A stretch of 64,000 bases of DNA from a virus (taxonomy: Duplodnaviria; Caudoviricetes): IMG/VR virus record IMGVR_UViG_3300033069_001465. One strand, 5' to 3'. A program made the translations under genes and the position numbers. A model generated the notes under the pieces. It was given only the letters and a program-made list of their open reading frames with translations. It did no database searches and was not told where the DNA came from. Below are positions 1,000 to 55,995 of the stretch, piece after piece. Positions within the stretch are counted from its first letter, which is position 1, and each line of letters starts with the position of its first letter.

Positions 1000-1566
1000 A
1001 TGAAGTATCTTAAACGAGTGTTTGAAAACACTACCAATGATGCCGCCCGTATCTTGTTTTTTGATAGATATAAGCAATCTATTTTAAAAAATATTGAAGA
1101 TAATTTTAATATAAATGTATTTGATTTTATAGATGAGTTCATTCATATTGAGGATAGTGGTGTTGATGTTGATATCAAATTCATAATTAATTTTAAAAAC
1201 AGAGATAAATATCCACAAAATAGAAATTTTGATATAGTAAAAAATAGAGGATCGATAAAAAATAATATTTATCAAACTGAACTTATAAATCGAAGAACAA
1301 TGTATGAAAGTCGGTTTGAATATGGATTGACATATTGTGGATACCCAATAGACAAAAATGATATAACTAATAAATTTATTAGTGTTCTTTTTATTAATCA
1401 AAAAAATCCATCAACAAGTATGGGTGATAATTTACATTTTTTGGATAAGTTCAAATATGTTATTTCTGAAATATGTAAAAAATACCAATTAAAAGTTGTT
1501 AAAGAAAATTCAACTATGGAAAAAATTGGATACACATCTTATAATATTTTACTAGATAATATATAA
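1000..1566 (+). CDS. N-terminally tagged hypothetical protein (MKYLKRVFEN...)
   Basis: ORF track; shared N-terminal motif. Confidence 0.75.
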   Translation: MKYLKRVFENTTNDAARILFFDRYKQSILKNIEDNFNINVFDFIDEFIHIEDSGVDVDIKFIINFKNRDKYPQNRNFDIVKNRGSIKNNIYQTELINRRTMYESRFEYGLTYCGYPIDKNDITNKFISVLFINQKNPSTSMGDNLHFLDKFKYVISEICKKYQLKVVKENSTMEKIGYTSYNILLDNI

Positions 1567-1575
1567 ATCATAATT

Positions 1576-2013
1576 ATGAATCATATTCAACTATTTGAGG
1601 AATATTCCAATTACTATAAAAAAATTGGGAGTGATTATGACAGTATAGGTATTGCACCTGACCAGTATACTGAAATATCCGACGATATATTTAATAAAAT
1701 AAAAGTAAAATTATCAGAGAAAAAATTCAATGTTAGTAAGGTAAATATACCATTATCTAATAGATTATTACATCCAGTAGACGTGATTATAGTTGTGAAT
1801 CGAAAAAACGAGGAATCTAATTTTGTATCAGGTAGAATAAAAATGACCACAGATGAATGGTTTTATGTGCAACTAGACTTTGGAACTCTACATGATAATG
1901 GGTCGAATAAATGGCGATATATCAATTTGCGAGAAGCAGATATTTGTGGTATATACAAATGTGACCAATTAGAAGGGTTATCTGGTACGCAGCTTTTCAA
2001 TTTGCCCGTTTAA
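1576..2013 (+). CDS. Tagged protein of the DEWF...YKCDQ paralog family (MNHIQLFEEY...)
   Basis: DEWFYV...YKCDQLEGL motif shared with ORFs at 11246, 42510, 50482 and 51810. Confidence 0.75.
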   Translation: MNHIQLFEEYSNYYKKIGSDYDSIGIAPDQYTEISDDIFNKIKVKLSEKKFNVSKVNIPLSNRLLHPVDVIIVVNRKNEESNFVSGRIKMTTDEWFYVQLDFGTLHDNGSNKWRYINLREADICGIYKCDQLEGLSGTQLFNLPV

Positions 2014-2026
2014 GTTGTTTGACGAG

Positions 2027-3001
2027 TTAGAACAATTCTCTTAATCTTCCTATAACCGTCATCCCTAATACAATCGGATCTGTATTTGTTTCTAATAATT
2101 TTGTATGTTCTGCAATAATATAATTTACCTGAAACAATTTATCAATGTTTTCTCTTTTTTCAGAAAATGACCATTGAATAAAATGTTTTCCAAATAGGTT
2201 AATCATTTCATCTATTTTATCTGGACCAAAGTTGTTCATTAAGAAATGATATATATCTTCATAATTTTTAGATTTGTCATAAATAATTGCATATAGATCA
2301 TTTCTCAATTTGAGATTTATATTTGAATTGGAGGATCCTTCTCCAGTTTCTTTAAAATGTTGAAGTTCATTCATCACTGAACGAAAATCTGGGAAATTTT
2401 TATTAATAATTTTTATTAAATCATCCTTTTTAATATTTATCTTTTCTTCTGGAGCAATTACATCCATTATTCTTTTATAGATGGATGTTTTAAGAAATTT
2501 TTCTTCATCAGCATTAATGCAGTCAAAGTTAATTTGTGTTGATCTTGATTTAATACCATCAGATATCTTATTAATGTGATTTGTATTAAATATAAATCGA
2601 ACATTTCGACTAGAATACTCATCTATGTATGCCTTTAAAGCATCTTGATATTGCGGAGATGTTCTTTCAAATTCATCTAAGAAAACATATTTCATAGAAT
2701 CTTGATCGATCATGTAGTCTAAGTCTAACCCCATATAAACTTTAGAACAGAAGTCATCAATTTTGGTCCTTAGAACATCAATTGAGGTATAGAAGGAGCT
2801 ATTTATTTCTAAGAAAGCTTTATCTTTTGAATATCTACCAATGAGTATTCTGGCTAATGTTGTTTTGCCGGTTCCATAATGTCCGTATAAAATAACATTT
2901 TTCTTAATTCCATCCTCAAATATTTTTTGAATTCTTGGTAGAAGAATAACATCTTCAAACTTTTTAGGTCTCCATTTTTCGCTTAGTAACAGTTCTTTCA
3001 T
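2027..3001 (-). CDS. gp44: Clamp loader AAA+ ATPase subunit (RFC small subunit / T4 gp44-like)
   Basis: EKWRPK..EDVIL, Walker A GHYGTGKTT, Walker B FLDEFE, SRC-like KSRS, PDFRSVMNELQ. Confidence 0.92.
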   Translation of the reverse strand: MKELLLSEKWRPKKFEDVILLPRIQKIFEDGIKKNVILYGHYGTGKTTLARILIGRYSKDKAFLEINSSFYTSIDVLRTKIDDFCSKVYMGLDLDYMIDQDSMKYVFLDEFERTSPQYQDALKAYIDEYSSRNVRFIFNTNHINKISDGIKSRSTQINFDCINADEEKFLKTSIYKRIMDVIAPEEKINIKKDDLIKIINKNFPDFRSVMNELQHFKETGEGSSNSNINLKLRNDLYAIIYDKSKNYEDIYHFLMNNFGPDKIDEMINLFGKHFIQWSFSEKRENIDKLFQVNYIIAEHTKLLETNTDPIVLGMTVIGRLRELF

Positions 3002-3044: not shown

Positions 3045-3488
3045 TTATTTAAATCGTGATCCACGATATCTACCCCCAATAAATCCACTACCACCATATG
3101 ACTTACTAATTGGATCCTTTATTTCTAAGCTCATAATAGCATCTATAAATTCTTGAGGTGGTTTATACTTATGATCTCGTACATAGTGTGATACTTTACT
3201 TGGGAATTTATAACATTTCCCATTATATTCAATTTTTTTAACTTGTGATCCCATAAGAACACCACATAATTCGCACTGGTGAAACCCTTTATGTCTTTCT
3301 GAAGTATACTCATCTGAACGTTCTACTGCTTCTAGCTTTTTAATAAATTCTTCAGAAACCTCACCAGTCGTAAAGTTTTCTTCACTCCCGATCCATCCGA
3401 CATTTAGGCATTCTTTACCATGTATACGACCATATGCATATGGAGTTAGGTCTTCATAATAAGATTCAAATAATTTTAGATGTTTCAT
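3045..3488 (-). CDS. Tagged hypothetical protein with an HxCxxC/H putative Zn site (MKHLKLFES...)
   Basis: LNVGW...HKGFHQCELC...HYVRDHKYKPPQEFIDA. Confidence 0.75.
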   Translation of the reverse strand: MKHLKLFESYYEDLTPYAYGRIHGKECLNVGWIGSEENFTTGEVSEEFIKKLEAVERSDEYTSERHKGFHQCELCGVLMGSQVKKIEYNGKCYKFPSKVSHYVRDHKYKPPQEFIDAIMSLEIKDPISKSYGGSGFIGGRYRGSRFK

Positions 3489-3519
3489 TTTAATATATAT
3501 TAAAATGAAACATCTAAAA
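3474..3519. repeat. 46-bp perfect palindrome spanning two divergent start codons; probable bidirectional promoter TTTAATATATATTAAA
   Basis: TTTTAGATGTTTCAT-TTTAATATATATTAAA-ATGAAACATCTAAAA is its own reverse complement. Confidence 0.9.
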
Positions 3520-3993
3520 AAGTTTGAAGGATTTAGTCAGTTCACAATGTATGGAGAAAAATGGAAAGATCAAGCTCCAAATGAACTTACGATAATTAAA
3601 GATAAAGAAATAAGAAAATATCATCGGGAGAATACCGATTGTATTGGTGATTTAGTACAAATAAACTACGTAGCAGATAGTATTGTATATGGTGATCCTG
3701 ATGAAATGGAAATAGATATTTATATGATTAATATAAATAACCAATTAAAATTAAATGTTGATATTACATATGGTGATTTGGTTGTTTCCGAATTTAGTAT
3801 AGAGGCACCACATAAAGTTAGTGTTATTCAATATACATCTTATCATTCTAAATTTGATCCAAGTAATACTATTTTTGCCTTTGAGGATGAATCATTAGAA
3901 GCCTTTATTGCCTTCTTAAACAACTTTGACGGATTTCAATTAACAACTGATGATTTTAAATTTTTAGATAAAAGGGATAATTATTCTCAATAG
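3505..3993 (+). CDS. Tagged hypothetical protein (MKHLKKFEGF...)
   Basis: ORF track; N-terminal motif. Confidence 0.75.
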   Translation: MKHLKKFEGFSQFTMYGEKWKDQAPNELTIIKDKEIRKYHRENTDCIGDLVQINYVADSIVYGDPDEMEIDIYMININNQLKLNVDITYGDLVVSEFSIEAPHKVSVIQYTSYHSKFDPSNTIFAFEDESLEAFIAFLNNFDGFQLTTDDFKFLDKRDNYSQ

Positions 3994-4310
3994 TCAAAGT
4001 CTTCATCAGTGTAAAAAATATCAACATCACCATAATCGGTATTATTGAAATACCATCCTCCCCAATCTGTATCTTCAACAGATTCAGCATTCAATAGCTT
4101 GAATATTTGTTCTTTTACTTCATCATTGAATTCTATATCTGGTATTAATATATCAATATCGTGTTCGGATGTAACTTTTCCTTTCCCAAATCCACCAATG
4201 AGTGATGCATTTTTTGATATATTTTTTTGTAATAAAGACAATGCTTTATTCGCATCATCTATTGTATGCAACTTTTCAGTAATATACTCCTTAAATAATT
4301 TTATTTTCAT
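3987..4310 (-). CDS. Tagged minimal nucleotidyltransferase (Pol-beta superfamily)
   Basis: LIGGFGKG.....HDIDILI matches the hG[GS]-x(9-13)-DhDh signature, with a third acidic strand DVDIF; N-terminus MKIKLFKEY. Confidence 0.7.
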   Translation of the reverse strand: MKIKLFKEYITEKLHTIDDANKALSLLQKNISKNASLIGGFGKGKVTSEHDIDILIPDIEFNDEVKEQIFKLLNAESVEDTDWGGWYFNNTDYGDVDIFYTDEDFDY

Positions 4311-4358: not shown

Positions 4359-6824
4359 TTAGATACTAATATAGAATCTTGAATTTCCTGATGATATACC
4401 TTGAATCATCTTCATTTCCCCTTGATTAAGCACTATGTTTGATTTTATCTTATCAACAAGTTCATCCAATTCTTCTTTCTTTTTGGTGTGGCTTAGATAA
4501 TTAAATATCTCACTGAAATAATCTACATGATTTCTTCCTTGTTGATGAAAATCCTGTCCATCTATTTTTGACCACTTATCAGCTTGATTTCTAGTTCTTT
4601 TAACTAAATTAAAATAGTTTTGGAACCCCCAATTAAAATAGTAATAAATTAGAGAAACCGATTCGTGTTGATATATATCCATATTAGGAATTATTTGATT
4701 ACCATAGTTCTTTCTGACCTTTGTCCTATTTTTGACCAACCAATCACATAGTTTTTCTCTCTCACTATCATCCAATCTAAAATCCTCTCTTAAATAAGGT
4801 GTTTGATTATATGACTCCATGTTAAATAAAATTCTTATTAGGAATTTCATTTGATCTTTACTGAAACTAATTTTTAGACTGTTCATTAAATCAATATTAT
4901 CAGTTTTAACTAAACTGGTAATCATATAGAGAGTTGATGTAAACCCTAGTTCATCATATCTACCAAATGAGAATGACTCATTTTTTAATTTAGGATAGAA
5001 ATAATCAACTATTGTTTGCGCATCTATGTCTCTTTTATTTCTATCAATTTTTACAACCCACTGTTTTATAGTATTTAGTGCATAATTCGTTGTTGTATAT
5101 TGTGGTAATACTTTTTTATAGAGTCTTAATAGTTCCTCCCTTTCACACAATTCTTTTAATTTAGGGTATCCTGATAAATATTCTTCATCGATATCTAAGA
5201 ATACTGAGGAACTTATTTTATTTTCATCTAAAAATTTATTCATTGCTTCTTCTTGACTAGAGGATGGATTGATAACCAAATCAACTATTTTATCAACGTG
5301 TGATTTTATTTGTGGATATTTTTTAGATAACTTCATCCAAACATTTAATGGATTTGAGTTAAAAACATAACCTAAGTCAAATTTTGATTTTTGTATTAAT
5401 TTTATTAAGCCATCCGTATCGACCTCATACCCATTTAATTTCGCAAATTCTAATATTTCATCTATCTTACTAACATTATTATCTCTTAAGTAGCTAACCA
5501 ATTGATCCCATGTAAATATGTGTGGCCCAACTCCATAGTATTTTAAAACATATAATTGTTGATTAAAATTTAGCCCATAGTTAGAAAAGCTTTCTATCGT
5601 CGAATTTTGTAGTCGATCTATTATATCAATAGAATCATAATCAAATATTTTCTTTAGATCTTCATCTTTTGTATCAAACATTTTTATTTCTCTTGGGAAT
5701 GGATTTAAATTAAATAAATAGTTCATATTTATTTTTTCTCTTAGTTTAAATTGTTTTTTTCTACTAATTATCCATTCTAAGCCCTTTCCCTTTATTTGGC
5801 CGAGATAATTTATCTCCATTTTATCTTGCAGCCCATGATTTTCCATTTCATCTGTAGTGAATAGTTTAAAGTCATCTTGTTTAAATACGGATTTATTTTT
5901 TAGAATATCATCTTTTGATATTCCAAATTCAATTAGGTCGCTTACCGGAGTGTTATTAAAATTAATCTCATCAAATTTAATTTTCAATGAGTCTAATTTA
6001 AACCCCCTATCTAATAGTATCGCTGATAACTTATCAGAATAAATTGATCTATCATCAACTAAATGAGCTGTATAAAGCTTATATCCATAGGTTATTCCTA
6101 TTTTTCTATAATTATCATTTAGATCTGTCAAGAAGGCAACAAATTGTCTATTTAACCCATTATTATAAGAATTAAATGTAGATTGATCCAAAATACACCA
6201 ACTTGTATCACCTGCTAATCTTCTTAATTGGAAACTATCAGAAACTTTAATTATAATTATGTCATTCGCCTTGCTTTTATAAATTAAATCAACATTTGTA
6301 TTCTTAACTTCTCTTAAGATAGATTCGTATTTTAAGTTCTTTTGATTTACAAAAGAGTTCAAAGCATTAGACAATTCAGATTGAGTTTTATATCTTGATA
6401 TTTTCTTTATGAATACGTTTTTATCTTTTCTATCATATAATTTCAAAAATAGAGGATACATATTACTATTTACCAAATCTTTCTGTGTAGAAGGTAACTC
6501 TGATATCATTTGTTTAATCTTCCAATTATTTCTAGCGGATATAATATCATCTTGTAACTCTTCCCATTTTGAATAATTCGTAATGGTTTTGTTTAAGTTT
6601 CTAATATAAGGCGCGGATATTATCAAATCATATAACTCTTTAAGTGACTCAAAGCTAACACCTTGTTCTAGCCACATTTTAACAAAGAATCCTAAATATC
6701 CATTATGATCTTTAGTTAACTCCTTTATGTCATTATATGTTTTGCTATTTTCACCCACCCCAAACTTTCGCAAAATTGATCTGGCTAGTTGTGTATTTTC
6801 AAATAATTTAAAATTATCGATCAT
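4359..6824 (-). CDS. Large tagged hypothetical protein (821 aa) with a T-S-W-C-I (PcfJ-like) segment
   Basis: MIDNFKLFEN tag; LAGDTSWCI...TFNSYN motif; TAATATATA box 4 nt upstream; flanked by 27-bp direct repeats. Confidence 0.75.
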   Translation of the reverse strand: MIDNFKLFENTQLARSILRKFGVGENSKTYNDIKELTKDHNGYLGFFVKMWLEQGVSFESLKELYDLIISAPYIRNLNKTITNYSKWEELQDDIISARNNWKIKQMISELPSTQKDLVNSNMYPLFLKLYDRKDKNVFIKKISRYKTQSELSNALNSFVNQKNLKYESILREVKNTNVDLIYKSKANDIIIIKVSDSFQLRRLAGDTSWCILDQSTFNSYNNGLNRQFVAFLTDLNDNYRKIGITYGYKLYTAHLVDDRSIYSDKLSAILLDRGFKLDSLKIKFDEINFNNTPVSDLIEFGISKDDILKNKSVFKQDDFKLFTTDEMENHGLQDKMEINYLGQIKGKGLEWIISRKKQFKLREKINMNYLFNLNPFPREIKMFDTKDEDLKKIFDYDSIDIIDRLQNSTIESFSNYGLNFNQQLYVLKYYGVGPHIFTWDQLVSYLRDNNVSKIDEILEFAKLNGYEVDTDGLIKLIQKSKFDLGYVFNSNPLNVWMKLSKKYPQIKSHVDKIVDLVINPSSSQEEAMNKFLDENKISSSVFLDIDEEYLSGYPKLKELCEREELLRLYKKVLPQYTTTNYALNTIKQWVVKIDRNKRDIDAQTIVDYFYPKLKNESFSFGRYDELGFTSTLYMITSLVKTDNIDLMNSLKISFSKDQMKFLIRILFNMESYNQTPYLREDFRLDDSEREKLCDWLVKNRTKVRKNYGNQIIPNMDIYQHESVSLIYYYFNWGFQNYFNLVKRTRNQADKWSKIDGQDFHQQGRNHVDYFSEIFNYLSHTKKKEELDELVDKIKSNIVLNQGEMKMIQGISSGNSRFYISI

Positions 6825-6855: not shown

Positions 6856-6882
6856 TTTATATATAAATCTATGATTGGAGAA
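6856..6882 (+). repeat. 27-bp direct repeat, copy 2 (promoter and start of the gp15-like gene)
   Basis: Identical to 4324-4350. Confidence 0.9.
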
Positions 6883-7617
6883 AGATTTAATTTTGAAGAT
6901 GTGTTTTTTCGTGACTTAACAGTTTGTGTTTTGGATACATTAGAAGGTGAAGTTTGGTGGACGAATCGATTTTCATCAGGAGACATAGAAGTTAAGGTTC
7001 CTTTTTATTATTCCATGACAGGAGATGAAAGATTTCTCTTAGATTCTTTTGCTGATGATGTCGTTTCTGATAACAGATATGTAGAGTTAAACACTGATAT
7101 TATACCAAGAGGTCATTTAACAATGACTGGATTTGATATTAAATCAGATGAATTTGCTAATCCAAATGTTTGGCTAAGAACTGTTGTTGAGAACAAAACA
7201 GAAATTAAAAAAGTTTTAACGAAAGTTAGAGCAGTTCCGATATCGGTTAAATACGACTTATCAATTTTATTAGCAAGTGAAATAGATTCTTTTAAATGCA
7301 GTCAGGCAATAATTAATACCCTATGGTTGTATAGGTTTATGTATTTTGAACACAACTATATGAATATAGATGCGGTCATGATACTTCCGGATGCAAATCA
7401 GGTTGAAATTTCAAGAGAGAAGAACCTTACAACTGACAATACTATCAAATTGACAGTATCTTTTGAAGTTCATACTTATTACCCAGCATTTCGAAGTGGT
7501 GATGGGACAACTGATGTAATAAATCCAAAGAAAACCAGATGGTATTTGAATTTAATTGAATCTAGACGAGCCGGAGTTCCATTTGTTTTAGATAATAATA
7601 TAAATAATAATCCTTAA
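6871..7617 (+). CDS. gp15: Tail terminator / tail completion protein (T4 gp15-like)
   Basis: IEVKVPFYY, IPRGHL, AVPISVKYDLSI...SQAII and terminal LTVSFEVHTYYP follow the gp15 family pattern. Confidence 0.65.
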   Translation: MIGERFNFEDVFFRDLTVCVLDTLEGEVWWTNRFSSGDIEVKVPFYYSMTGDERFLLDSFADDVVSDNRYVELNTDIIPRGHLTMTGFDIKSDEFANPNVWLRTVVENKTEIKKVLTKVRAVPISVKYDLSILLASEIDSFKCSQAIINTLWLYRFMYFEHNYMNIDAVMILPDANQVEISREKNLTTDNTIKLTVSFEVHTYYPAFRSGDGTTDVINPKKTRWYLNLIESRRAGVPFVLDNNINNNP

Positions 7618-10953: not shown

Positions 10954-11249
10954 TTCACCATAAAAAAGAAGATTATGATGTTCTAATTGATAGAACTACA
11001 AAGTGGGGTTGCCCATTTTCATATAGAAAAGGAACAAGGGCAAAGTATATTTTGCCAACTAGAAAAGAAGCAATTGAAGCGTATCGTGAATGGATTACCA
11101 ATGGTGAAGGCAAATATCTATTAAATGACTTACATGAGCTTAAAGGGAAAACTCTTGGTTGCTGGTGCAAACCTAAGACTTGTCATGGTGATGTATTAGT
11201 TGAGTTGGTGAACAATTTAGATAAACCAAAAGTTGGATTTGATATTTAG
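10935..11249 (+). CDS. DUF4326-like protein
   Basis: VVHHKKEDYDVLIDRTTKWGCPF...ELKGKTLGCWCKPKTCHGDVL family signature; start at 10935 or 10929. Confidence 0.8.
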   Translation: MEKCKVVHHKKEDYDVLIDRTTKWGCPFSYRKGTRAKYILPTRKEAIEAYREWITNGEGKYLLNDLHELKGKTLGCWCKPKTCHGDVLVELVNNLDKPKVGFDI

Positions 11250-11617
11250 ATTATTAGGTCTTCTATTAGCTTAATTAGTCCATCAAATTGGTCACATTTA
11301 TAACTTTGGGAAAACACTTCTTTAGTTTTTTGATTAGTTGCTATAAACCACTCATCTTTGACCTTTTCTACAAACCATTTATCATCATCTTTTATAATTT
11401 CTAAATGCTTAGTTCCTCCCATTACTTTTCTATCAAATTCATAATCTATACAATTATTAAATAATAATTCAATCAATTCACTTTTTTCTTCTGGAGTAAA
11501 TGGTACCCTATTTGTTCCAACTCTTACTCCGGTAGCGCCCATTAATTTTTCATATTCATAATAATCAATTCTTTGATAGTATTGATTTGTAGACTCATAT
11601 GATTTCAAATATCTCAT
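11246..11617 (-). CDS. Tagged DEWF...YKCDQ family protein (MRYLKSYES...)
   Basis: DEWFIA...YKCDQFDGLIKLI. Confidence 0.78.
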   Translation of the reverse strand: MRYLKSYESTNQYYQRIDYYEYEKLMGATGVRVGTNRVPFTPEEKSELIELLFNNCIDYEFDRKVMGGTKHLEIIKDDDKWFVEKVKDEWFIATNQKTKEVFSQSYKCDQFDGLIKLIEDLII

Positions 11618-12237
11618 TATTTAATAGGACAATTTGTTGCACTATAGATATAATCAAAATTTCTTTTAATTGATACACCCAATGCTTTAGCAGTTGTTTC
11701 AACATCTAAAAAACACTCTTGGTCAGATCCGCCAACCATTATAACTTCTTTATTTCTTAGTCTTAAAAATAAATCATAGAGTTTTTTAGGACAATGATAC
11801 CAGACATGTTTGTTTCCGATATAAACAATGATTGTTCCTTCATTTGTTAAAAAGTAATTTCCTCTTCTTAATAAACCCTTACTTTCTTTATTTTTAACAT
11901 CTTGGTATATATCTGGTGATAGTATCTTTTTATAAAAATCAGCATCTACATTATAATTATATCTTTTTTCTATAATATCCTTTTGGTTATTAAATACATA
12001 TAGATCATTATTATTTGGCTTGTCTGGATTCTTATCATATAAATAATCAGTATCTACATTCTTTCCCTCTACATGGTTATCAAATATTTGATAAACAGTT
12101 TCAAATTTTTTACAATACTCATTTAATTGCTTTAAATAATTATCAGTGAAGAATTTTTTAAATGACTTCTGAACATCAACTATAATTAGTATCGATTCAT
12201 TATTATTGATTTCCTCGTATGTCTTTAAGTATATCAT
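11617..12237 (-). CDS. Tagged isochorismatase/nicotinamidase-fold cysteine hydrolase
   Basis: LIIVDVQKSF (catalytic Asp), D-x-H, EKRY (Lys), VIMVGGSDQECF (catalytic Cys); tag MIYLKTYEE. Confidence 0.7.
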   Translation of the reverse strand: MIYLKTYEEINNNESILIIVDVQKSFKKFFTDNYLKQLNEYCKKFETVYQIFDNHVEGKNVDTDYLYDKNPDKPNNNDLYVFNNQKDIIEKRYNYNVDADFYKKILSPDIYQDVKNKESKGLLRRGNYFLTNEGTIIVYIGNKHVWYHCPKKLYDLFLRLRNKEVIMVGGSDQECFLDVETTAKALGVSIKRNFDYIYSATNCPIK

Positions 12238-12247
12238 AATTTATATA

Positions 12248-43049: not shown

Positions 43050-43050
43050 A

Positions 43051-44886: not shown

Positions 44887-45221
44887 AGATTATTTATTTT
44901 TTGTAATAATCTATCAATTTCGGCATTTTTAGGAATTTCTTTACATATCCAATTAATAACATCAACTGGATTCTCACCCTCTACTATCCTATGCATGAAC
45001 TCTTTATATAAATCATCATCCTCATCAATTACTTCCTTTATTTCTATTTTAAGAGCATTAAAACAAGACCAAAAGCAATCATCCTCACCCATTAATCCAT
45101 TAGTAACAATTTCTGAAAATTGTTTTTCTAATCGTGTTTGCTTGCCAAAATGTTGTTCGACTCTGCTTAATGGTTCATCATCATATGGATTAAATGCTTC
45201 AAATAGTTTTAAATATTTCAT
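44883..45221 (-). CDS. Tagged hypothetical protein (MKYLKLFEAF...)
   Basis: Tag; ATGA overlaps on both sides. Confidence 0.75.
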   Translation of the reverse strand: MKYLKLFEAFNPYDDEPLSRVEQHFGKQTRLEKQFSEIVTNGLMGEDDCFWSCFNALKIEIKEVIDEDDDLYKEFMHRIVEGENPVDVINWICKEIPKNAEIDRLLQKINNL

Positions 45222-45592
45222 TCTATAATTTCAATTTTTATTAATATTTTGTTACCTCTCTCCACTATTCCATATAATTTAGACTTTAAACTAAATCTAT
45301 TTGCAACCTTATTAACATCATTAAGAAATTCACTAACAACATTAGTATCACTATCTATGATAGATGAAACTATATATCCAGGTTTTTTTCTATAAATATA
45401 AGAGTCGGGATATCCAGAATTATTAACACCATTTTTAATATGATATGATCTACTAACACCATCATCTTTTCTATAAACTGCATTAGTTTTTTTCACAGAT
45501 ACTTTCCATTTACTATCTACTAGTTCAAGAAAGTAGTCTTCTATTAAATCAACTGGAGATACCTCATTCTCAAATGTTTTAATATATTTCAT
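45218..45592 (-). CDS. Tagged IEDYFLEL-family protein (MKYIKTFEN...)
   Basis: DLIEDYFLELVD...PGYIV. Confidence 0.75.
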   Translation of the reverse strand: MKYIKTFENEVSPVDLIEDYFLELVDSKWKVSVKKTNAVYRKDDGVSRSYHIKNGVNNSGYPDSYIYRKKPGYIVSSIIDSDTNVVSEFLNDVNKVANRFSLKSKLYGIVERGNKILIKIEIIE

Positions 45593-45937
45593 TTATCTCA
45601 TTAATTTTCCATCTATTATTAGATATAATTCAAGAGTTTCTAAATAAAATTCTTGGCCATCTATTATACATCTATCTGAATTTCCATGTTCTGTCTCTTC
45701 AACATTATTAGGGGCAACAATATTACCTGGATAATTTGGATGTTTATTTATTGAAAAGTTTCTATCAAAGTCTTCCTTATTAGTGAAATTAAAAACTTGA
45801 CAATATTGATCTTCTTTTGAAATATAGAATACGGTCCATCCTTTATAATGTTTTAACTTCTCAACAGTTATGTCAAAGAAATCAAAGCTCTCATATCTTA
45901 AATTAGATATACCTTCATTAAATCTTCTAATTTTCAT
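45593..45937 (-). CDS. Tagged hypothetical protein (MKIRRFNEG...)
   Basis: Tag variant. Confidence 0.72.
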   Translation of the reverse strand: MKIRRFNEGISNLRYESFDFFDITVEKLKHYKGWTVFYISKEDQYCQVFNFTNKEDFDRNFSINKHPNYPGNIVAPNNVEETEHGNSDRCIIDGQEFYLETLELYLIIDGKLMR

Positions 45938-46360
45938 TTATATAAAAAATTTTAAGTTTCCAGATTTTGGTGGAAATTCATCAAAATCAATTTCGTCATA
46001 TCCACCTTTATTCCATAATAATGTGAATACTTCAGGATGTGTATGTCCATGTTCATTTCTTGTTATTCTTAGTGCATATGTTCCTTCAACTTGTGGATCT
46101 GGATAGACTTCTATTTTATTTGATGGATTATTTACATTAACATACATTTCTAATTCCTTAATAGCTTCTTTTGGAAGTATTTTATCGGTATACTTGGACC
46201 AAGGAGCCTCAGCACCATCATTGCCTAAATAGTTGTTATATTTACCATCACATTCGGAACAGCAACAATCTTGGAACTTTTTCTCTGGTGTAAATTTTTT
46301 ATAACACCACTTACACTCTTTTTCTTCCTCAAAATTTTCAAATAGTTTAATGTGTCTCAT
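45938..46360 (-). CDS. Tagged protein with a Zn-finger (MRHIKLFENF...)
   Basis: CKWCYKKF.......CCCSEC. Confidence 0.75.
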   Translation of the reverse strand: MRHIKLFENFEEEKECKWCYKKFTPEKKFQDCCCSECDGKYNNYLGNDGAEAPWSKYTDKILPKEAIKELEMYVNVNNPSNKIEVYPDPQVEGTYALRITRNEHGHTHPEVFTLLWNKGGYDEIDFDEFPPKSGNLKFFI

Positions 46361-46361
46361 A

Positions 46362-46964
46362 TTATTTTCTAAATTTATTTGGAAATAAGTTTCTTAACTC
46401 ATGTCCTTGTGGTATATCTGATTTTCTAATTCCAAATATCTTTTCTTCTGGGCAGGTGTCTTTTCCATCTATATAAAAATTATTATTACAAGCCCATGTT
46501 TCTACGCTTCTATTTAATACCTGACCTACTAAAAATGGAAATCTAACATGAACATGATTAGGCTTCTCAATTCTTGTTATTCTTCCATCTGGAGTTTTAT
46601 ATACATTAAAAGCTTGGGTTTGATTCCTTTTACTAACAAATTTAACTAATATTTCATTGGATTTGGATTCCATTAAATATCCCTCATCATCACCCTTCTC
46701 TAATATTTGTGCATCTAATGCTGCTGAGAGAGGTATTATATGTCCTTCTCCCTCATCTCCCATATATCTTTGACCTTCATCTTCGGATACAACATATCCA
46801 TCTGATGTTAAAGTAACTACATAAAGTGTTCCATACTTTTTAAAATGAACTAAATCACCAGGCCCAATATCTTCATTCTCATCAGTTTCCCAATCAGATT
46901 CGCGCATTTTACCATCCTTATCTACATATAACGCGAACTCTTTAAATAATTTAATATTTTTCAT
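46362..46964 (-). CDS. Tagged two-domain protein (MKNIKLFKEF...; internal YLMES junction)
   Basis: Tag; TTATATATA box 4 nt upstream; first gene of the 9-gene minus-strand tagged array. Confidence 0.75.
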   Translation of the reverse strand: MKNIKLFKEFALYVDKDGKMRESDWETDENEDIGPGDLVHFKKYGTLYVVTLTSDGYVVSEDEGQRYMGDEGEGHIIPLSAALDAQILEKGDDEGYLMESKSNEILVKFVSKRNQTQAFNVYKTPDGRITRIEKPNHVHVRFPFLVGQVLNRSVETWACNNNFYIDGKDTCPEEKIFGIRKSDIPQGHELRNLFPNKFRK

Positions 46965-47160: not shown

Positions 47161-47192
47161 ATAAGAGTATATATTAGAATATTAGTTTTCTT

Positions 47193-47230: not shown

Positions 47231-47264
47231 TAAATTTTAATATATAGATAAAATAATATTAAAT

Positions 47265-48659: not shown

Positions 48660-48977
48660 CTATTCATCCTTTCCATCATCTGGTTCTACGTAGTACTCTA
48701 ACCAAGATTCTCTCTCATCGTTATATACTTGATCAGCTTCGTCACGATCCTCAATTTCATCTTCTTCCATTATCTCATCCACGGTTCTTAATCCGTGTAA
48801 TCCTTCATAACTTTCATATTCCTCAATCGCAGCATAATAAGCTTCTTTTTCGGCCTGATCCTTTGGTCCTGTAAATGTTCTAATGTATTTGGCATTTCCA
48901 AATCCACCACCTAAACCCGCATATATTTTCCATTTTCTAATCTCAGAAAATTCTTCGAATAATTTAATTTTTTTCAT
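48660..48977 (-). CDS. Tagged acidic small protein (MKKIKLFEEF...)
   Basis: Tag; IYAGLGGGFG...YESYEGLHG. Confidence 0.75.
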   Translation of the reverse strand: MKKIKLFEEFSEIRKWKIYAGLGGGFGNAKYIRTFTGPKDQAEKEAYYAAIEEYESYEGLHGLRTVDEIMEEDEIEDRDEADQVYNDERESWLEYYVEPDDGKDE

Positions 48978-49692: not shown

Positions 49693-50250
49693 TTATTTAG
49701 CTATTATTTCCATCCATTTTGCATCCTCACCATATAGCTTACCTTCTCTTATCTTTACATCTTCAATTTCAAAAAAATTAGAAATGATCTCTTTCCATTC
49801 ACTTGGAGTTAATATTATCTTATTTGTTTTAATATTATCATTTTGAATTTTAACACTCATCAATAATTTTTTACCTATTCTTCTAATCTCCCTAAAGATT
49901 TCATTTAATTCCTCTTTTGTAAAATAGTGTAATCCTAATCTTGAATATACTAAATCAAATTCATTATCACTAAAAGGAAATTTCTTTTTAGTATCATGTT
50001 TAATACAATTTAAACCTTTGTCTATAGCATTTTTTATATACCCATCATCCAAATCAGTGCATGTTACCTTATATCCTTTTTTTTGTAGATATAATGAGTC
50101 TTCCGCATTTCCGCAAGCAATTTCTAATATAGATGATCCCGGATAAGATATGTTATCAATTACATTCATAAGTCCCTCATCTACATTATTATGAATATTT
50201 AGTAGAGAGGATATTGCCTCAAATGTTTTATAGTTTTTAATATATCTCAT
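49693..50250 (-). CDS. Tagged class I SAM-dependent methyltransferase
   Basis: MRYIKNYKTFEA; ILEIACGNA, VTCTD, FPFSDNEFDLVYSRLGLHYF. Confidence 0.82.
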   Translation of the reverse strand: MRYIKNYKTFEAISSLLNIHNNVDEGLMNVIDNISYPGSSILEIACGNAEDSLYLQKKGYKVTCTDLDDGYIKNAIDKGLNCIKHDTKKKFPFSDNEFDLVYSRLGLHYFTKEELNEIFREIRRIGKKLLMSVKIQNDNIKTNKIILTPSEWKEIISNFFEIEDVKIREGKLYGEDAKWMEIIAK

Positions 50251-50481: not shown

Positions 50482-51813
50482 TTAATTTAAAAATTCAATT
50501 CTAACTATTGATTTAGACAGTATATCTCCAAATAAATCTTGATCCATTATCTTAATAAGTATATTACAATTAATGTGTCTAGCGAATTTTCTAAAAAGAT
50601 AGTCCATCGTATCAATTGTATATCCTCTTATATCCAAGTTACCTTTGGCTCTCCATTTTGGTTGTAATATTTCTATTTTTAAATACGTAACATTTTCTTT
50701 TGATGTATTAATTGTTGGTGATTCTATCTTTTTTTGATGACTATCAAATTTGTTGATTTTCACACTATTAATATAGAGATAGTCTAAATATATATTAGAT
50801 CGACCTCTCCATTGACGATGTAATTCATCTTGTTCCGATTCTACTATATTAATATCTCCGTCATCTAAAAATTCAATAAAATAGTCCTCTACCTCATCAG
50901 GTGACATTGCGCTCTCACGTATTCTTAAATCTACCACTCCTTCATCTTCAAGTAATTCTATTAATCCATCAAATTGATCACACTTATAGTATAATTTTGT
51001 ATTTTTTGTAATATTCTCTCTTTCAACTAAAAACCATTCATCATTTAATTTAAATATTCTGAAAAATATCATGTAAAACCCTACAATATCACTACCTATT
51101 TTAGTCCTAATTTCTATCTTATAAGATGAATGAATTATTAATTTAGACCAATCCTTTTTAAGGACTTTTTCTATTTGATCTATTTCTGACCCAAAACGTT
51201 CTAAAGCATTTACATCCTTGACCATGGATCCGAATTCATTATTATCTATTTGATGATATAATGTATTAAAAGATGCGTTCTCATTTAATGATTCTAATTT
51301 TTCTTTTATCCTTTTAACACTGTCATAAAACTTATTTACTGTATAAGACATTCCATGTTCGGTTGGCGTCAAATCTCTATTAATTGTATCAAGATGTATT
51401 CCATTTGGAGCTACTTTAGGAATAGTTTTATCATTTCTAATGTCACCTATATTTGAATCCAATGATTGAGCAATGCTTTTGAGTATACCTATTTCATAAT
51501 ACTTATTTATATCACTTTGATGACCTTTATTAAACCAATAATCTGAACCTATTCCAAAAAATGGATACCACTTTCCTGCCGCAACATCTTTTTTACCAGC
51601 ATGACCAGATGATAAATAAAATGGAATTCTTATTCCATTTATATCAAATAAAACAATTTTTCTATCTGCATAATCAATGATTTTAGATTTACCCTTGATT
51701 CTATTTTTGGTATAGTGACCATTTGAATCTTTTTCATAAGTTTCATATGGTATTTCTACCCTAATAGCATTAATCTTAGATTCAAATAAACTAAACTCTC
51801 TTATGTGTTTCAT
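50482..51813 (-). CDS. Tagged three-domain polyprotein-like ORF (unique domain + YKCDQ domain + EDYF domain); start MKHIREFSLFES at 51813
   Basis: ATGA overlap with the upstream stop supports 51813; junctions LESLNEN and LRIRES; DEWFLV..YKCDQFDGL; DEVEDYFIEF. Confidence 0.78.
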   Translation of the reverse strand: MKHIREFSLFESKINAIRVEIPYETYEKDSNGHYTKNRIKGKSKIIDYADRKIVLFDINGIRIPFYLSSGHAGKKDVAAGKWYPFFGIGSDYWFNKGHQSDINKYYEIGILKSIAQSLDSNIGDIRNDKTIPKVAPNGIHLDTINRDLTPTEHGMSYTVNKFYDSVKRIKEKLESLNENASFNTLYHQIDNNEFGSMVKDVNALERFGSEIDQIEKVLKKDWSKLIIHSSYKIEIRTKIGSDIVGFYMIFFRIFKLNDEWFLVERENITKNTKLYYKCDQFDGLIELLEDEGVVDLRIRESAMSPDEVEDYFIEFLDDGDINIVESEQDELHRQWRGRSNIYLDYLYINSVKINKFDSHQKKIESPTINTSKENVTYLKIEILQPKWRAKGNLDIRGYTIDTMDYLFRKFARHINCNILIKIMDQDLFGDILSKSIVRIEFLN

Positions 51814-52259
51814 TTGTTTGGCACCCATGGTAGTAAACCTTCTACTAATTTTTTTAATAGATTTATTAACCCATCTATTTGGTCACACTTGTAGTATTCA
51901 AATGTATAATCATCTATTTTATAAAATGTGGATCTTAACTCTTCATCGGTTGGTGATTTTGTAACCATTACTAAAAACCATTCATCATCAAACTTATTAA
52001 TAGATATTTGAACCCCAAGATATTTTAGAAATATAACATCACTTTTAAAGATATTTCTAATTGATTCGGGAACAATATTTTGCACCTCTTTTATCTCTTT
52101 ATCTTTAAAAAAGACACTTTTAGATCTTGAAAATACATCTTGATCATCTGAATCATCTGAATCATCTAAATCAAACATATCATTATATTCATCTACACTT
52201 ATTTTTTGATATAGATCATTAATACTTTCAAATGTTTTATATTTTTTAATGTAATTCAT
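51810..52259 (-). CDS. Tagged DEWF...YKCDQ family protein (MNYIKKYKTFES...)
   Basis: DDEWFLV...YYKCDQIDGLINLL. Confidence 0.78.
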   Translation of the reverse strand: MNYIKKYKTFESINDLYQKISVDEYNDMFDLDDSDDSDDQDVFSRSKSVFFKDKEIKEVQNIVPESIRNIFKSDVIFLKYLGVQISINKFDDEWFLVMVTKSPTDEELRSTFYKIDDYTFEYYKCDQIDGLINLLKKLVEGLLPWVPNK

Positions 52260-52531
52260 TTTAATTTAATAATTTTAACAACTAGATCTTGACTACCTTT
52301 TATCACTCTATGCCAACGTTTCTTCTCAACAAATAATTTAGTTCCATTCATATCAATAGGCAACTCATTATCAAATTGGAATTTCCAATCAGTAGTTCCT
52401 ATAACTTCTACTATTCTATCCTCATCATCCCAATGCCACTGTAATAATTTATCATCAGTATTCTTATTAAATGTTCTTATGTAGGCATTATCTACAATTT
52501 CTTCTTTAAAGGGGTATGGTCGTATCATCAA
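52256..52531 (-). CDS. Small cupin-like protein
   Basis: WHWDDEDRIV...WKFQFDNELP...WHRVIKG His pattern of a cupin barrel. Confidence 0.65.
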   Translation of the reverse strand: MMIRPYPFKEEIVDNAYIRTFNKNTDDKLLQWHWDDEDRIVEVIGTTDWKFQFDNELPIDMNGTKLFVEKKRWHRVIKGSQDLVVKIIKLK

Positions 52532-53489
52532 ATTCTATTTCATCCTTATTCATTTTACAATCATCACATATTCTATCATCTGTATAAATGGATTCACCAC
52601 ATATATCACATTCACCTTTACTCATATTTTCAAATTTTGAAATATAAATATTTTCCTTTATTGGAAGCTTATAAACAAGTAATTTAACACTGGTTTTATT
52701 AATATCATCAACTTCTATATCCAGACCAATTCCATTGAGTCTTTTTCTAAGTTGACTTATATTACTAAAAAAACGACTAATAGTTTCAAGCTCCTTATCT
52801 AATCCATTTTTAAATCCAATATTGACAATAAAATTTGATATCTTATCATCACTTTTTATTTGATCTATTTTAATAATAAATTTTCCACTATCAATGAGAT
52901 CTAACAAATAATCTTCTATTTCTAATTCAATTTCAGATTCTATATGCATTTTATCAGTTTTAACTAAAGTAACCTGTTTTGGTGTCCTATAATATTCTTT
53001 ACCCTTTACATCAATAAGTTTTAAAACTTTCATTATTTTACCCTTGTCTAAGTTAAAATTATATTTGGAAATCAAATCTGTTTTTATTTGAACTATTTTA
53101 GCATTTATGTTTAAATCTGATATATACACCATAGATCCATTAAAAAATCCATGTTGCTTTAAACTTCTATCCATTATTGTAGTATCTATATTATAGAGTT
53201 TTTCATTTTTCCACGGTTGATATCGAGAAACAGAAACACGTCCACTATCACTAACCGTTAGATGACCTTCCTTTTCATATGGCTCTTGATCTAATACACT
53301 TATATTACCTGATTCAAAGTTTGATTCACCACGGTCGGTGTAATGACTATATCGTTCTAAATCAGAGCTTGAATATAACAAGTCCATTTTAAAATCACAA
53401 ATCCAATCTAATTTAACCGGATTCGTAATTTTCTTTTTCTTTTTCTTTTTAAGAAAATCAAAAATATGATACTCTTTAATATATTTCAT
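52506..53489 (-). CDS. Tagged multi-domain protein with an IEDYL domain and a C-terminal re-tagged Zn ribbon
   Basis: MKYIKEYHIFD; LEIEDYLLDLID; IKENIYISKFEN followed by CDIC..CDDC. Confidence 0.72.
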   Translation of the reverse strand: MKYIKEYHIFDFLKKKKKKKITNPVKLDWICDFKMDLLYSSSDLERYSHYTDRGESNFESGNISVLDQEPYEKEGHLTVSDSGRVSVSRYQPWKNEKLYNIDTTIMDRSLKQHGFFNGSMVYISDLNINAKIVQIKTDLISKYNFNLDKGKIMKVLKLIDVKGKEYYRTPKQVTLVKTDKMHIESEIELEIEDYLLDLIDSGKFIIKIDQIKSDDKISNFIVNIGFKNGLDKELETISRFFSNISQLRKRLNGIGLDIEVDDINKTSVKLLVYKLPIKENIYISKFENMSKGECDICGESIYTDDRICDDCKMNKDEIEFDDTTIPL

Positions 53490-54235
53490 CCTGAAAATTT
53501 ATTGCTTTTTTTAATATTTTCGCTCCACTTCAATGGTTGAAAGTTTGTATATTTATTTAATTCATATACTTCTTTCTCATTTTTAGCCCATGATACCGGA
53601 ACAATATGATCTAGTTGCCAATATGTGGCATAGTTATCCCAATTCATCTCAGTTGTAAATTTGGATTCAATGTGAATTTTGAACTCTTCAAAAGTGCATC
53701 CTAGTATCTCAATTGTTTTTTTAGCCTTTTTTGTATATCTAAGTTTAAATGATTGAGATATTAAAGTCCTGATTGAATATTTTAGTTTTATTAAAGGATC
53801 CTTTTTAATATTTCTTAAATATTCATTTATCTTATTTTTATTATTTTTTTGATAATTTTTCCAATATTCCTTTCTTTCTTCGATATTATTTAAATAATAT
53901 TCTCTTTGGTATTCAATCTTTTTTTCTTTGTTATCCAAATAATAGTTTTTAGATTGCTCTAAAATTTTATCACTATTTTCATAATAATATTCTAAATTGG
54001 ATATCTTAAGAACTTCTTTATTTTTTATCCAATATTCCCTATTATAATTTTTTCTTTTTTCTTTATTTTTTAAAAAATATTTTTGTATTTTTTCTTTATT
54101 GTTTTTTCTATATTCAGAAGCTATTTTATTTTCACACTCCTTACAGGAATTTCTATGAAAATCTTTTTTTGACTTATCATTAAAGAAATAAGTTATATTC
54201 TTCTCTATGTTGCACTTTTTACAAACTTTTGTCAT
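53486..54235 (-). mobile_element. HNH/EndoVII-like homing endonuclease with an N-terminal Zn ribbon and Y..NKEK repeats
   Basis: CKKC..CKEC, ILGCT.EEFK.HIES.F..EMNWDNY..WQLDHIVP...YTNFQPL..ENIKKSN. Confidence 0.82.
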
Positions 54236-54249
54236 ATGATATATTTAAT

Positions 54250-55599
54250 TTATCTAGATCGAACAAGGTATTTCTTCACCAAAAGTTTCCAAACCGATTC
54301 CTCTCTATCACCAATTTTAATAGTTTCCTCATTATTTGCTCTTAAATTAATAGAGTGAATTAATGTTCTAATATTCATATCAAATTTAGTTGGATAGTTA
54401 TTCGTAACAAATGTTAGATATTCTAAAGCTTCTTGCTTTTTTTCCATTGTAACATCTGGGGATAATTTTCTCATAATCTCACTCATTCTAGCAAATAATT
54501 CCTTTTTACTTAAATGAACATCAACATGTAATGCCCTTGAAAGTAAAGCATCGTCAAATTTAGATTCAGGTAAATTTGAGATAAATATTATTTGACCAGT
54601 AAATTCAAATTTATTCGGAAGTTTACCACTAGCATCATATGTTTCTTGAATTTCCTTCTCATCCATTCCAGCTGAATCAAATTTATTCCCCTTTGTTAAA
54701 CTAGATATTTCTCTAATTTTATATGTATCTAATGCACCTTTAAGTATATTTATGGATTCAGAATCTTTAAAAACTGCATCACAATCATCGAAAACTATTA
54801 ACCTATGCCTATTCTTAAATAATAACTCATATAACCCAGCAGTTGTTGCTGTGCCTGTTGCAAAGTAATAATGTATATCAGCTTGCATCCCAAGCGACTC
54901 CAAGGTATCCTTGACTGTTCTAGTTTTACCAACTCCCGCATCACCAGATATAACTAATGAATTTGATTTTCCTCTTGCTACTTGAATTGTATATAGCTCA
55001 ATAGATTTGAATATATCAATTTTTAAATCGTCATCTAATTGATTAACCTTTTCACTATCTGTTTCTGCTTTTTCATCATAAGCAATTGCTGCTCTCAATT
55101 GTTCTATTTTTCTTTCTTGGGAAGCTATTGATTTAGGACTTCTTAGTTTACCCAATCTTTTAACTGCTGCTTCTAATTCTTGTCTTGGGTCGTATCCACC
55201 TTCTTCTATATCTAACTCCTCCTTAACTAAAATTGCTGGATCTTTTACAAAGTTTAATATTTGTGGTAATACTTTAGTAATTGATTTTTGTCCTAATTCT
55301 AAAGTATATTCGGGATTCTCATCAAATTTAAAACTTGTCCATATATCTATACTATGAATTTCTGATCTAATGTCATCTTCTATCCAGTTGAATCTGATAG
55401 CTTTAGATGATCTTAATGAAACAAATAACTGTCCACTTAGGAACAAGTCTTTCTTTTGTATATGCCATATTTCCTCATATTCATATAAATCTACATTAGA
55501 GTTTTTAGTAATGTATGATACAATGGTATCTATAGCCTTTTTCTTATCTTCTTGTAAAAAAGCTTCGTTGAATATTTCAAATTTGTTTATATGTTTCAT
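54250..55599 (-). CDS. Tagged protein with a C-terminal AAA+/P-loop ATPase
   Basis: MKHINKFEIFNEA; Walker A GDAGVGKT, Walker B IVFDDCD, LKGALD, IFISN, ALLSR. Confidence 0.82.
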   Translation of the reverse strand: MKHINKFEIFNEAFLQEDKKKAIDTIVSYITKNSNVDLYEYEEIWHIQKKDLFLSGQLFVSLRSSKAIRFNWIEDDIRSEIHSIDIWTSFKFDENPEYTLELGQKSITKVLPQILNFVKDPAILVKEELDIEEGGYDPRQELEAAVKRLGKLRSPKSIASQERKIEQLRAAIAYDEKAETDSEKVNQLDDDLKIDIFKSIELYTIQVARGKSNSLVISGDAGVGKTRTVKDTLESLGMQADIHYYFATGTATTAGLYELLFKNRHRLIVFDDCDAVFKDSESINILKGALDTYKIREISSLTKGNKFDSAGMDEKEIQETYDASGKLPNKFEFTGQIIFISNLPESKFDDALLSRALHVDVHLSKKELFARMSEIMRKLSPDVTMEKKQEALEYLTFVTNNYPTKFDMNIRTLIHSINLRANNEETIKIGDREESVWKLLVKKYLVRSR

Positions 55600-55602
55600 A
55601 AT

Positions 55603-55995
55603 CTATCTTTTTTTAAAATGAATTTTAGCATCTTTTCTAACATAATCATAATTGGTATCTTTTTTAATATTTTTACATTTAGTCCACAATTTTTTACCAA
55701 CATAATTACTACATCTTATTGGAACATCGTCTACCCATACCTTATATCTTTTACCAAAGCATTCCTCCTTATTAGAATAATGATGACCGGTATTTGGATT
55801 TCTCGGATAAATCAATCCAATTTTAATACTATATCCATCAATATCCATCCTAATAAATGGATCCCCATTCACATCAAAATGCTCTTGACTAACATCAGAT
55901 GTTAAACTATCTATAATACCATATACTGTTTCCTCATCTTTATTAAACAACTTTCTAACACCAAATAATTCGTTGATATGTTTAATATGTTTCAT
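55603..55995 (-). CDS. Tagged hypothetical protein (MKHIKHINE...)
   Basis: Tag variant; TAATATATA box upstream. Confidence 0.72.
   Translation of the reverse strand: MKHIKHINELFGVRKLFNKDEETVYGIIDSLTSDVSQEHFDVNGDPFIRMDIDGYSIKIGLIYPRNPNTGHHYSNKEECFGKRYKVWVDDVPIRCSNYVGKKLWTKCKNIKKDTNYDYVRKDAKIHFKKR

Follow-up and report, generated by a model that had tools for sequence, protein, structure and literature searches.

The capsid-targeting sequence (CTS) that T4's internal proteins IPI, IPII and IPIII carry was reportedly the subject of work by Mullaney and Black in 1996, and reviews cover it (PMC9026906, PMC3012670, PMC5694885). The concept, and its use by T4-like phages to load varied proteins, are established (PMC9026906, PMC3012670): head incorporation of T4 IPIII needs no more than its first 10 residues, and mutagenesis of the T4 CTS has assigned targeting mainly to residues 4 and 7 (Tyr4 and Phe7) and processing to residues 8 and 10 (PMC9026906). 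The phiKZ-like giant phages (phiKZ, 201phi2-1 and SPN3US) are giant myoviruses; their prohead protease is related to gp21 and cuts after Glu, and their heads hold dozens of different internal or ejection proteins. Their propeptides, in contrast to what we describe here, are mostly long (>100 residues) and have no single common leader, and no shared tag of 8–13 residues on a large fraction of the proteome has been described for them (PMC5694885, PMC10052503); in SPN3US only 8 of the ~50 head proteins are processed (PMC5694885). In this work, we have analysed 64,000 nucleotides of DNA from a virus of the class Caudoviricetes (IMG/VR record IMGVR_UViG_3300033069_001465; the whole stretch is hereafter called the window), in which 36 open reading frames (ORFs) begin with variants of one short N-terminal tag, MKYLKLFE. 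Taking all the comparisons together, we think it somewhat probable that this N-terminus is a capsid-targeting (head-targeting) propeptide of the T4 kind, hugely multiplied in one lineage.

The window has a G+C content of 27% and encodes T4-type core genes. Its tail sheath protein is 57% identical to those of LR756502 (642 kb) and LR745206 (635 kb), both uncultured phage genomes, with more distant matches in other huge phages and in Tenacibaculum jumbo phages. For anything that lies outside the window, the whole genome LR756502 and relatives in IMG/VR were used as stand-ins.

The tag and the proteins that carry it

The original prediction held that 36 ORFs of the window start with an MKYLKLFE-like tag and then diverge, and both parts of it stand: all 36 coordinates are ATG starts of open frames (85–1032 amino acids, aa) with such N-termini, and all-against-all BLAST found the bodies behind the tag largely unrelated, with a few small paralogous groups. 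With a position-specific scoring matrix (PSSM) built from the strict tags, 25 of the 36 score above 9 bits. In the remaining 11 the tag has a gap or is longer, as in MKIRNFSEFITEA, MNIKNYKSFNEG and MIDNFKLFEN; long variants of the tag, in the relatives too, end in F-I-x-E as in T4, and the weakest tags of the 36 are those of the ORFs at 1000, 22296, 37802 and 55995. The ORFs, with strand and N-terminus, are as follows.

1000..1566, +, tagged ORF, 188 aa, MKYLKRVFEN (weak variant), PSSM 5.0
1576..2013, +, tagged ORF, 145 aa, MNHIQLFEEY, PSSM 17.7
3045..3488, -, tagged ORF, 147 aa, MKHLKLFES followed by a DUF7919 domain from residue 10
3505..3993, +, tagged ORF, 162 aa, MKHLKKFEGF, with a palindromic TAATATATA box between it and the head-to-head 3045-3488
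3987..4310, -, tagged ORF, 107 aa, MKIKLFKEYITE (variant)
4359..6824, -, ORF, 821 aa, MIDNFKLFEN (shifted variant, weak)
11246..11617, -, tagged ORF, 123 aa, MRYLKSYEST
11617..12237, -, tagged ORF, 206 aa, MIYLKTYEEI (LR756502 ortholog starts MKYIKTYENH)
12248..12679, -, tagged ORF, 143 aa, MKYLNLFEDF
12707..13516, -, tagged ORF, 269 aa, MRYLKLFDSH
13580..14176, -, tagged ORF, 198 aa, MKHIRKFESY (LR756502 ortholog starts MKHIRQFESY)
21745..22197, -, tagged ORF, 150 aa, MNIKNYKSFNEG (long variant)
22296..25394, +, ORF, 1032 aa, MKYLKYHQEY (partial tag), adjoins the sheath gene (ortholog starts MRYLKQREEF)
25391..25957, +, ORF, 188 aa, MIKKYSDFVRE (long variant); the LR756502 positional counterpart (no BLAST match) starts MKYLKGYSSFNED
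36411..36848, -, tagged ORF, 145 aa, MKYLKLFDSY
36878..37135, -, tagged ORF, 85 aa, MEIKNFLSFTES (long variant)
37167..37805, +, tagged ORF, 212 aa, MKYLKIFEAY
37802..38656, +, ORF, 284 aa, MKYLLELNEF (weak variant)
38983..39906, -, tagged ORF, 307 aa, MKIRNFSEFITEA (long variant, nearest to T4 YQEFIAEA)
39919..40188, -, tagged ORF, 89 aa, MKHLNKFNER
42510..43049, -, tagged ORF, 179 aa, MKYLKLFEDH, downstream-most of eight tagged genes in a tight minus-strand run (42510-46964)
43051..43512, -, tagged ORF, 153 aa, MIKTFLQYNEA (long variant)
43505..44596, -, tagged ORF, 363 aa, MKYLKLFENF
44593..44886, -, tagged ORF, 97 aa, MKYLKLFESN
44883..45221, -, tagged ORF, 112 aa, MKYLKLFEAF
45218..45592, -, tagged ORF, 124 aa, MKYIKTFENE
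45593..45937, -, ORF, 114 aa, MKIRRFNEG (short variant)
45938..46360, -, tagged ORF, 140 aa, MRHIKLFENF
46362..46964, -, tagged ORF, 200 aa, MKNIKLFKEF
48660..48977, -, tagged ORF, 105 aa, MKKIKLFEEF
49693..50250, -, tagged ORF, 185 aa, MRYIKNYKTFEA, with a SAM methyltransferase domain
50482..51813, -, tagged ORF, 443 aa, MKHIREFSLFES, from the ATG at 51813
51810..52259, -, tagged ORF, 149 aa, MNYIKKYKTFES
52506..53489, -, tagged ORF, 327 aa, MKYIKEYHIF
54250..55599, -, tagged ORF, 449 aa, MKHINKFEIFNEA, with a weak AAA/P-loop match (AAA_16, 26.0 bits against a cut-off of 32.6 bits); LR756502 ortholog starts MKIKKYQAFYEA
55603..55995, -, ORF, 130 aa, MKHIKHINELF (weak variant)

The position of the tag is strict. 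The pattern M[KRNI][YHNIKW][LI][KRNLQ].[FYW][EDNKHQ], searched for in the six frames of the window, gave 22–23 matches. Each of them coincides with the first ATG of an ORF (minimum length 40 aa), and the 273 in-frame ATGs further along yielded none. The same result was obtained independently of any such pattern, as Leu or Ile at residue 4 together with Phe, Tyr or Trp at residue 7 occurs in 26 of 76 genes of the window, against 1.6 expected and 0–2 in shifted registers, and in LR756502 in 154 of 921 genes, against 17 expected, with the shifted registers at background. A hydrophobic-x-Glu site ([LIVMF]-x-E) lies within the first 16 residues of 27 of the 36 tagged proteins, against ~10 expected from a rough, composition-based estimate with no computed control. 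A reading as Sec, Tat or lipoprotein signal peptides, which have a hydrophobic core of ~10 or more residues behind a basic N-region, was rejected: no 12-residue stretch in the first 36 residues has a Kyte-Doolittle mean above 1.6 (maximum 1.33).

Pfam finds no domain in most of the tagged proteins, the exceptions being DUF7919, the SAM methyltransferase and the weak, sub-cut-off AAA match, and PHROGs profiles compared with ten of them gave almost nothing. The window's recognisable T4-like core genes begin without the tag:

2027..3001, -, gp44-like clamp loader, untagged comparator
6871..7617, +, T4 gp15-like tail sheath stabiliser, untagged comparator
16508..18664, -, T4-type large terminase, untagged comparator
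26021..29794, +, tail sheath, 1257 aa, untagged comparator
41388-42509, gp47-like phosphoesterase, untagged

Three homing-endonuclease-like ORFs of the window also lack the tag. The original prediction had gone further and stated that the tag is absent from every recognisable replication, packaging, tail, homing-endonuclease, glycosylation and R-M gene; this holds for the core and homing-endonuclease-like genes, but it is too clean where enzymes are concerned, since the methyltransferase and the ORF with the weak AAA match are tagged in the window, and in relatives the tag is carried by HNH endonucleases, a lysozyme and a PQ-loop membrane protein.

Conservation of the tag resides in the protein. 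At its conserved residues (Leu, Lys, Tyr, Phe and Glu) the choice among synonymous codons resembles that of the genome as a whole: Leu4 is written as TTA, CTA, CTT, CTC or TTG, both codons occur for each of Lys, Tyr, Phe and Glu, and codon 2 alone leans to AAA. A purely nucleotide-level signal, an outcome that the original prediction had named as fatal to itself, was rejected because synonymous codon usage follows the genome, and the tag is under selection at the amino-acid level. It is found both 4–5 nucleotides behind a recurrent upstream box, TAATATATA, and on box-less genes inside operons with overlapping stop and start codons. In addition, abundant structural genes are untagged (the sheath in the window, the capsid protein in LR756502), which argues against a signal for translation efficiency.

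The comparison of orthologs shows that the tag is a detachable N-terminal add-on. In one family of the head module, tagged orthologs start MKHLRKFEEL-(D/N)YSTY and untagged ones M(K/N)YSTY, so that the difference is exactly the tag, which is 100% identical where the ortholog bodies are 45% identical. Close homologs of the DUF7919 protein, all metagenome-derived, are all tagged, with either the short form MKHLKLFES or the long form MKHLKTFKKINES, whereas a distant homolog is untagged; residue 10 is where the Pfam domain begins. The border of the tag, placed by comparing orthologs that have it with orthologs that do not, falls at residues 8–13, a T4-type leader being ~10–19 residues long. In the AlphaFold (AF2) model of the DUF7919 protein, made from a shallow alignment, residues 1–24 have a confidence score (pLDDT) below 50, so that the tag lies outside the predicted fold.

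Likeness to the T4 leader and the head module of relatives

The T4 genes ipII and ipIII, translated from NC_000866, both start MKTYQEFIAEA, and ipI starts MKTFKEFTS. When a hidden Markov model of 148 tags from the window and LR756502 was run on the 1,580 ATG-initiated T4 frames of at least 40 aa, gp61.1 ranked 1st, IPI 5th, IPIII 11th and IPII 12th. The top match, placed ahead of the internal proteins, is a 54-aa hypothetical protein (NC_000866, 18966-19130) that starts MKTFKEFIKED. The two enriched tag positions, 4 and 7, coincide with the mapped targeting residues of the T4 CTS. The tag matches the T4 CTS in sequence, in register and in its mapped determinants.

As in T4, a leader beginning at Met1 with M-K has a hydrophobic or aromatic residue 4, an aromatic residue 7 and usually a candidate hydrophobic-x-Glu end, it is borne by unrelated, fast-evolving bodies, and it belongs to phages with genes for a gp23-type capsid protein and a gp21-type protease, seen here in the relatives. 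The differences are of scale and form. T4 has three known CTS internal proteins plus the look-alike gp61.1, a candidate, and related T-even phages have other CTS-like proteins, whereas here there are ~36 in 64 kb and ~130 in the 642-kb relative; MKYLKLFE, the form that dominates locally, has fewer residues than MKTYQEFIAE, and the cargo includes enzyme-like proteins.

The head module of LR756502 contains a gp23-like capsid gene (227452-229167; PF07068, E = 4.5e-28), the product of which aligns at its N-terminus with the T4 gp23 propeptide. Directly upstream lies an ORF of 699 aa (225272-227371) in which a gp21-like protease is fused to a scaffold. Its first ~140 residues are gp21-like: 34 of 42 orthologs match Peptidase_S77, all below the curated cut-off, and hhalign pairs the ORF with T4 gp21 at E = 4.8e-5; its GEFDHP and VSSR fall on the gp21 motifs GELNHP and VSSR, which we take to contain the catalytic His and Ser. 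Among PDB sequences, a profile of the protease-scaffold matched nothing. The middle of the ORF consists of 10–12 tandem repeats of 14 residues, NLDKNI(S/A)YSEY(I/L/V)AE(N/H), each with an (I/L/V)-A-E site, and is followed by an acidic stretch and a conserved C-terminal domain. As in T4, where gp21 and gp22 are the counterparts, the N-terminal domain aligns with gp21 and the rest is formed by helical repeats rich in (I/L/V)-A-E, as one would expect of a scaffold destined for degradation; unlike T4, the relatives fuse protease and scaffold in one ORF, with a regular 14-residue repeat of which the unit is CTS-like.

The repeat unit YSEYIAE is close both to YQEFIAE of the T4 CTS and to the long variants of the tag (FSEFITEA in the window; YKEFITES, YSQFIKEA and YNQFINEA in LR756502). 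The motif [FYW]x[EQDNKS][FY][ILV]xE occurs 59 times in the LR756502 proteome, 24 times within the first 18 residues of ORFs and 11 times in the protease-scaffold ORF, the rest being singletons. In T4 it picks out gp61.1, the leaders of IPII and IPIII and, in gp23, the site FGSFLTE|A, presumably where gp21 cuts, after Glu65. Conservation of the repeats extends to 80 IMG/VR relatives, and they are present too in LR745206 and in LR756501. The latter gave no strict short-tag matches, and its scattered motif matches are N-terminal tags of the long kind (MENMLKYQEFINEA, MKKYIEFINEE and MKYLEFINEA). Neither the scaffold repeats nor the strict short tag were found in the Tenacibaculum phages PTm1 and pT24 or in Prevotella phage Lak-A1. 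At least six IMG/VR contigs have both exact MKYLK[LF]FE genes and the repeat scaffold, and in LR756502 two tagged ORFs lie within the head module, between a conserved 231-aa gene and the putative portal. Complex prediction for the protease-scaffold and a tagged head-module protein returned a score of 0.00, which weighs neither way.

We propose, as the most economical reading, that the first 8–13 residues would form a short amphipathic segment, of which hydrophobic residue 4 and aromatic residue 7 would dock the protein on the scaffolding core of the assembling prohead. This core would be the gp21-like protease fused to its 10–12-repeat scaffold, and the tag would imitate the repeat, NIxYSEY(I/L/V)AE. 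Once the shell has closed, the protease would cut scaffold repeats and tags alike after Glu, and the freed cargo would remain in the head and enter the host with the DNA. The 36 tagged proteins total 8,271 residues, by our own estimate ~0.9 MDa at one copy each; since T4 carries ~1,000 internal protein molecules (PMC5694885), head capacity should be no obstacle.

Distribution of the tag and weight of the explanations

The strict pattern at the DNA level matches 24 times in LR756502 and 25 times in LR745206, with no match for a reversed-pattern control. A profile scan of a relative, of the kind called for in the original prediction, found ~130 tagged ORFs by PSSM among 973 crude ORF calls in LR756502. 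Exact MKYLK[LF]FE codons are found in at least 117 IMG/VR loci, almost all at ORF starts and on contigs of 20–36% G+C, and many of the tag-bearing loci have genes and the TAATATATA box in common with the window. By contrast, 596 Gb of prokaryote genomes gave 47 matches of the MKYLK[LF]FE codon pattern, about the chance level, and none of the strict tag were found in the cultured marine or freshwater myoviruses Flavobacterium phage immuto, Methylophilales phage Melnitz and Pelagibacter phage HTVC008M, or in the cultured Tenacibaculum phages PTm1 and pT24 and Prevotella phage Lak-A1. Because it is frequent in LR756502, LR745206 and the IMG/VR loci, yet at chance in prokaryotes and absent from the cultured phages checked, the tag is a trait of one large T4-related megaphage lineage. 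Our literature search found no paper on the tag strings; on CTS-like motifs in jumbo phages it returned only T4 and SPN3US papers, with no common leader on a large fraction of a giant-phage proteome.

Two observations touch on where such motifs occur. In LR756502, tag-like motifs also follow Met inside longer frames (MKYLKAYKLFES at residue 126 of ORF 22663-23577, MKWLRGYKLFTES at residue 51 of 539621-541153 and MKRIKTYKVFEA at residue 95 of 42885-43721), and these may reflect a fusion of tagged modules, starts within the frame or ORF calls drawn too long. The T4-like phages Melnitz and HTVC008M, without the strict tag, have enzyme genes that start MKKFSEIIEA, MKKFSELTSELIE and MKTLKELL, the first and last of these on annotated cytidyltransferase-type genes; CTS-like leaders on enzymes may thus be more widespread among T4 relatives.

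The original interpretation is partly supported: its analogy with the T4 leader is backed by the tag profile that retrieves T4 internal proteins, by the agreement at positions 4 and 7, by the gp23- and gp21-like genes and CTS-like scaffold repeats of the relatives and by conservation at the amino-acid level; the part of it that set enzymes apart as untagged is too clean. Several results count against a head-targeting role. The T4 internal protein leaders are paralogous, so the ranking test amounts to about one independent match (p ~0.01). The hydrophobic-x-Glu site is missing in 9 of the 36 tags, and the short form of the window, KLFE, is off by one residue in its spacing relative to YIAE of the scaffold. 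A likeness of the short tag to another scaffold element, KYLDYL(A/S)EK, had to be dropped, as the short-form PSSM stayed below threshold on the scaffold. Where the T4 gp23 cleavage site aligns, the capsid protein of LR756502 reads LPG instead of LxE, and the protease-scaffold gene is known here from the relatives only. The tagged set includes ordinary cytoplasmic enzyme types and, in a relative, the PQ-loop membrane protein; the tagged share, ~30% of the ORFs in the window and ~13% in LR756502, is of unprecedented scale; and no cultured relative that carries the tag was found among the phages checked.

What else could the tag be? It might serve another cytoplasmic process, as a degron, as a handle for chaperones (a phage protease of the ClpXP type and DnaK are possible partners) or as a site for the gp21-like protease that times the life of accessory proteins. 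N-termini of the M-basic-hydrophobic-hydrophobic kind resemble published ClpX N-motifs and K-Y-L-K-L-F resembles DnaK-binding cores, the tag is borne by many enzyme-like and unknown accessory proteins, and it is predicted to be flexible; however, this would leave the likeness to the T4 CTS, in register and determinants, and the likeness to the scaffold repeat unexplained, and we consider it unlikely. Less probable still, in our view, is that the tag directs proteins to some other phage-built structure, such as a replication compartment or a membrane-associated factory. Giant phages do build compartments, and one portable N-terminal signal on a large share of the accessory proteins would suit such a structure, but the similarity points to components of the head core, two tagged ORFs lie within the LR756502 head module, and no compartment genes were noticed, although none were sought.

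Two further explanations would place the cause in the gene start, and both are weakened by the codon and ortholog data. The shared N-terminus could be a feature of translation start or of the mRNA, with many of the genes lying 4–5 nucleotides after the TAATATATA box, maybe near-leaderless, and first codons selected for ribosome loading. The box is indeed over-represented in the window (28 occurrences against 10.4 ± 3.7 expected), its TATATA core starts 10–13 nucleotides before the ATG in ~20 genes, with the tag or without it, codon 2 shows an excess of AAA and the tag codons are AT-rich. We give this only a slim chance, as conserved residues are spelled with freely varying synonymous codons, residue order and not composition alone is fixed, substitutions are chemically conservative, the tag is equally present on box-less genes inside operons, and the most abundant structural genes are untagged. 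The least probable of all is that a cassette made up of a promoter and the first codons of a gene was copied around plastic regions by duplication and recombination, the tag being its passive, functionless relic: tagged genes do stand in tandem arrays, some tagged proteins are paralogous, and box and tag often travel together in IMG/VR loci, but the tag is kept, with synonymous change, where ortholog bodies are 45–60% identical, it has no internal occurrences, the bodies are mostly unrelated, and gain or loss coincides with the exact border of the tag.

If the tag works as in T4, the injected protein load would be far above that of any known phage, and hundreds of unknown genes would be reread as pre-made tools present at entry and not as products made after it; a simple sequence rule would then predict virion cargo from metagenomes. 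The likeness between tag and scaffold repeat offers a concrete idea of how a CTS may find the prohead core, a step that we did not find explained in T4 reviews. A bolder form of the head-targeting reading, which we advance tentatively and hold to be rather doubtful, is that this clade loads about a hundred or more different proteins per prohead through a leader that mimics the scaffold unit, the repeat being both docking site and protease substrate, so that every virion would deliver a large, modular, fast-evolving set of pre-made effectors and the tag would be a natural portable packaging signal. Even if packaging is wrong, a protein-level N-terminal signal on 13–35% of a phage proteome calls for an explanation.

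The upstream box and other features of the window

The TAATATATA box is almost always intergenic, with examples at 3491-3502, 12242-12250, 37141-37162, 41330-41366 and 56002-56051. Tag-bearing IMG/VR loci have it at a density of 0.35 per kb, compared with 0.04 per kb for loci of prokaryotes, and it is probably a lineage-specific promoter. The spacing of 10–13 nucleotides described above would give nearly leaderless mRNAs; the TATATA core lies ~24–37 nucleotides before the ATG of the sheath, terminase and gp47-like genes and of an ORF of 2155 aa. Between the divergent tagged genes 3045-3488 (-) and 3505-3993 (+), which are 16 nucleotides apart, a perfect palindrome is centred on TTTAATATATATTAAA, and since each gene begins with the reverse complement of the region upstream of the other, the 30 nucleotides before each ATG are identical (window 3475-3518).

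The 2155-aa ORF (56075-62542, +) has no Pfam match and is 49% identical to a 1891-aa ORF of LR756502; it is found in 11 IMG/VR loci, often beside a conserved 192-aa tagged protein. Two paralogous ORFs of ~500 aa (9469-10953, +, and 34110-35684, -; 41% identical) have DUF7487 and weak REase_MTES_1575 matches; each follows a TAATATATA box directly, and the two resemble mobile endonuclease genes. Finally, a 9-nucleotide tandem repeat (AGTAGAAAA / TTTTCTACT) of at least four copies, at about 47170-47240, fills the gap between the divergent genes 47005-47160 (-) and 47265-48056 (+), with a TAATATATA box on either side.

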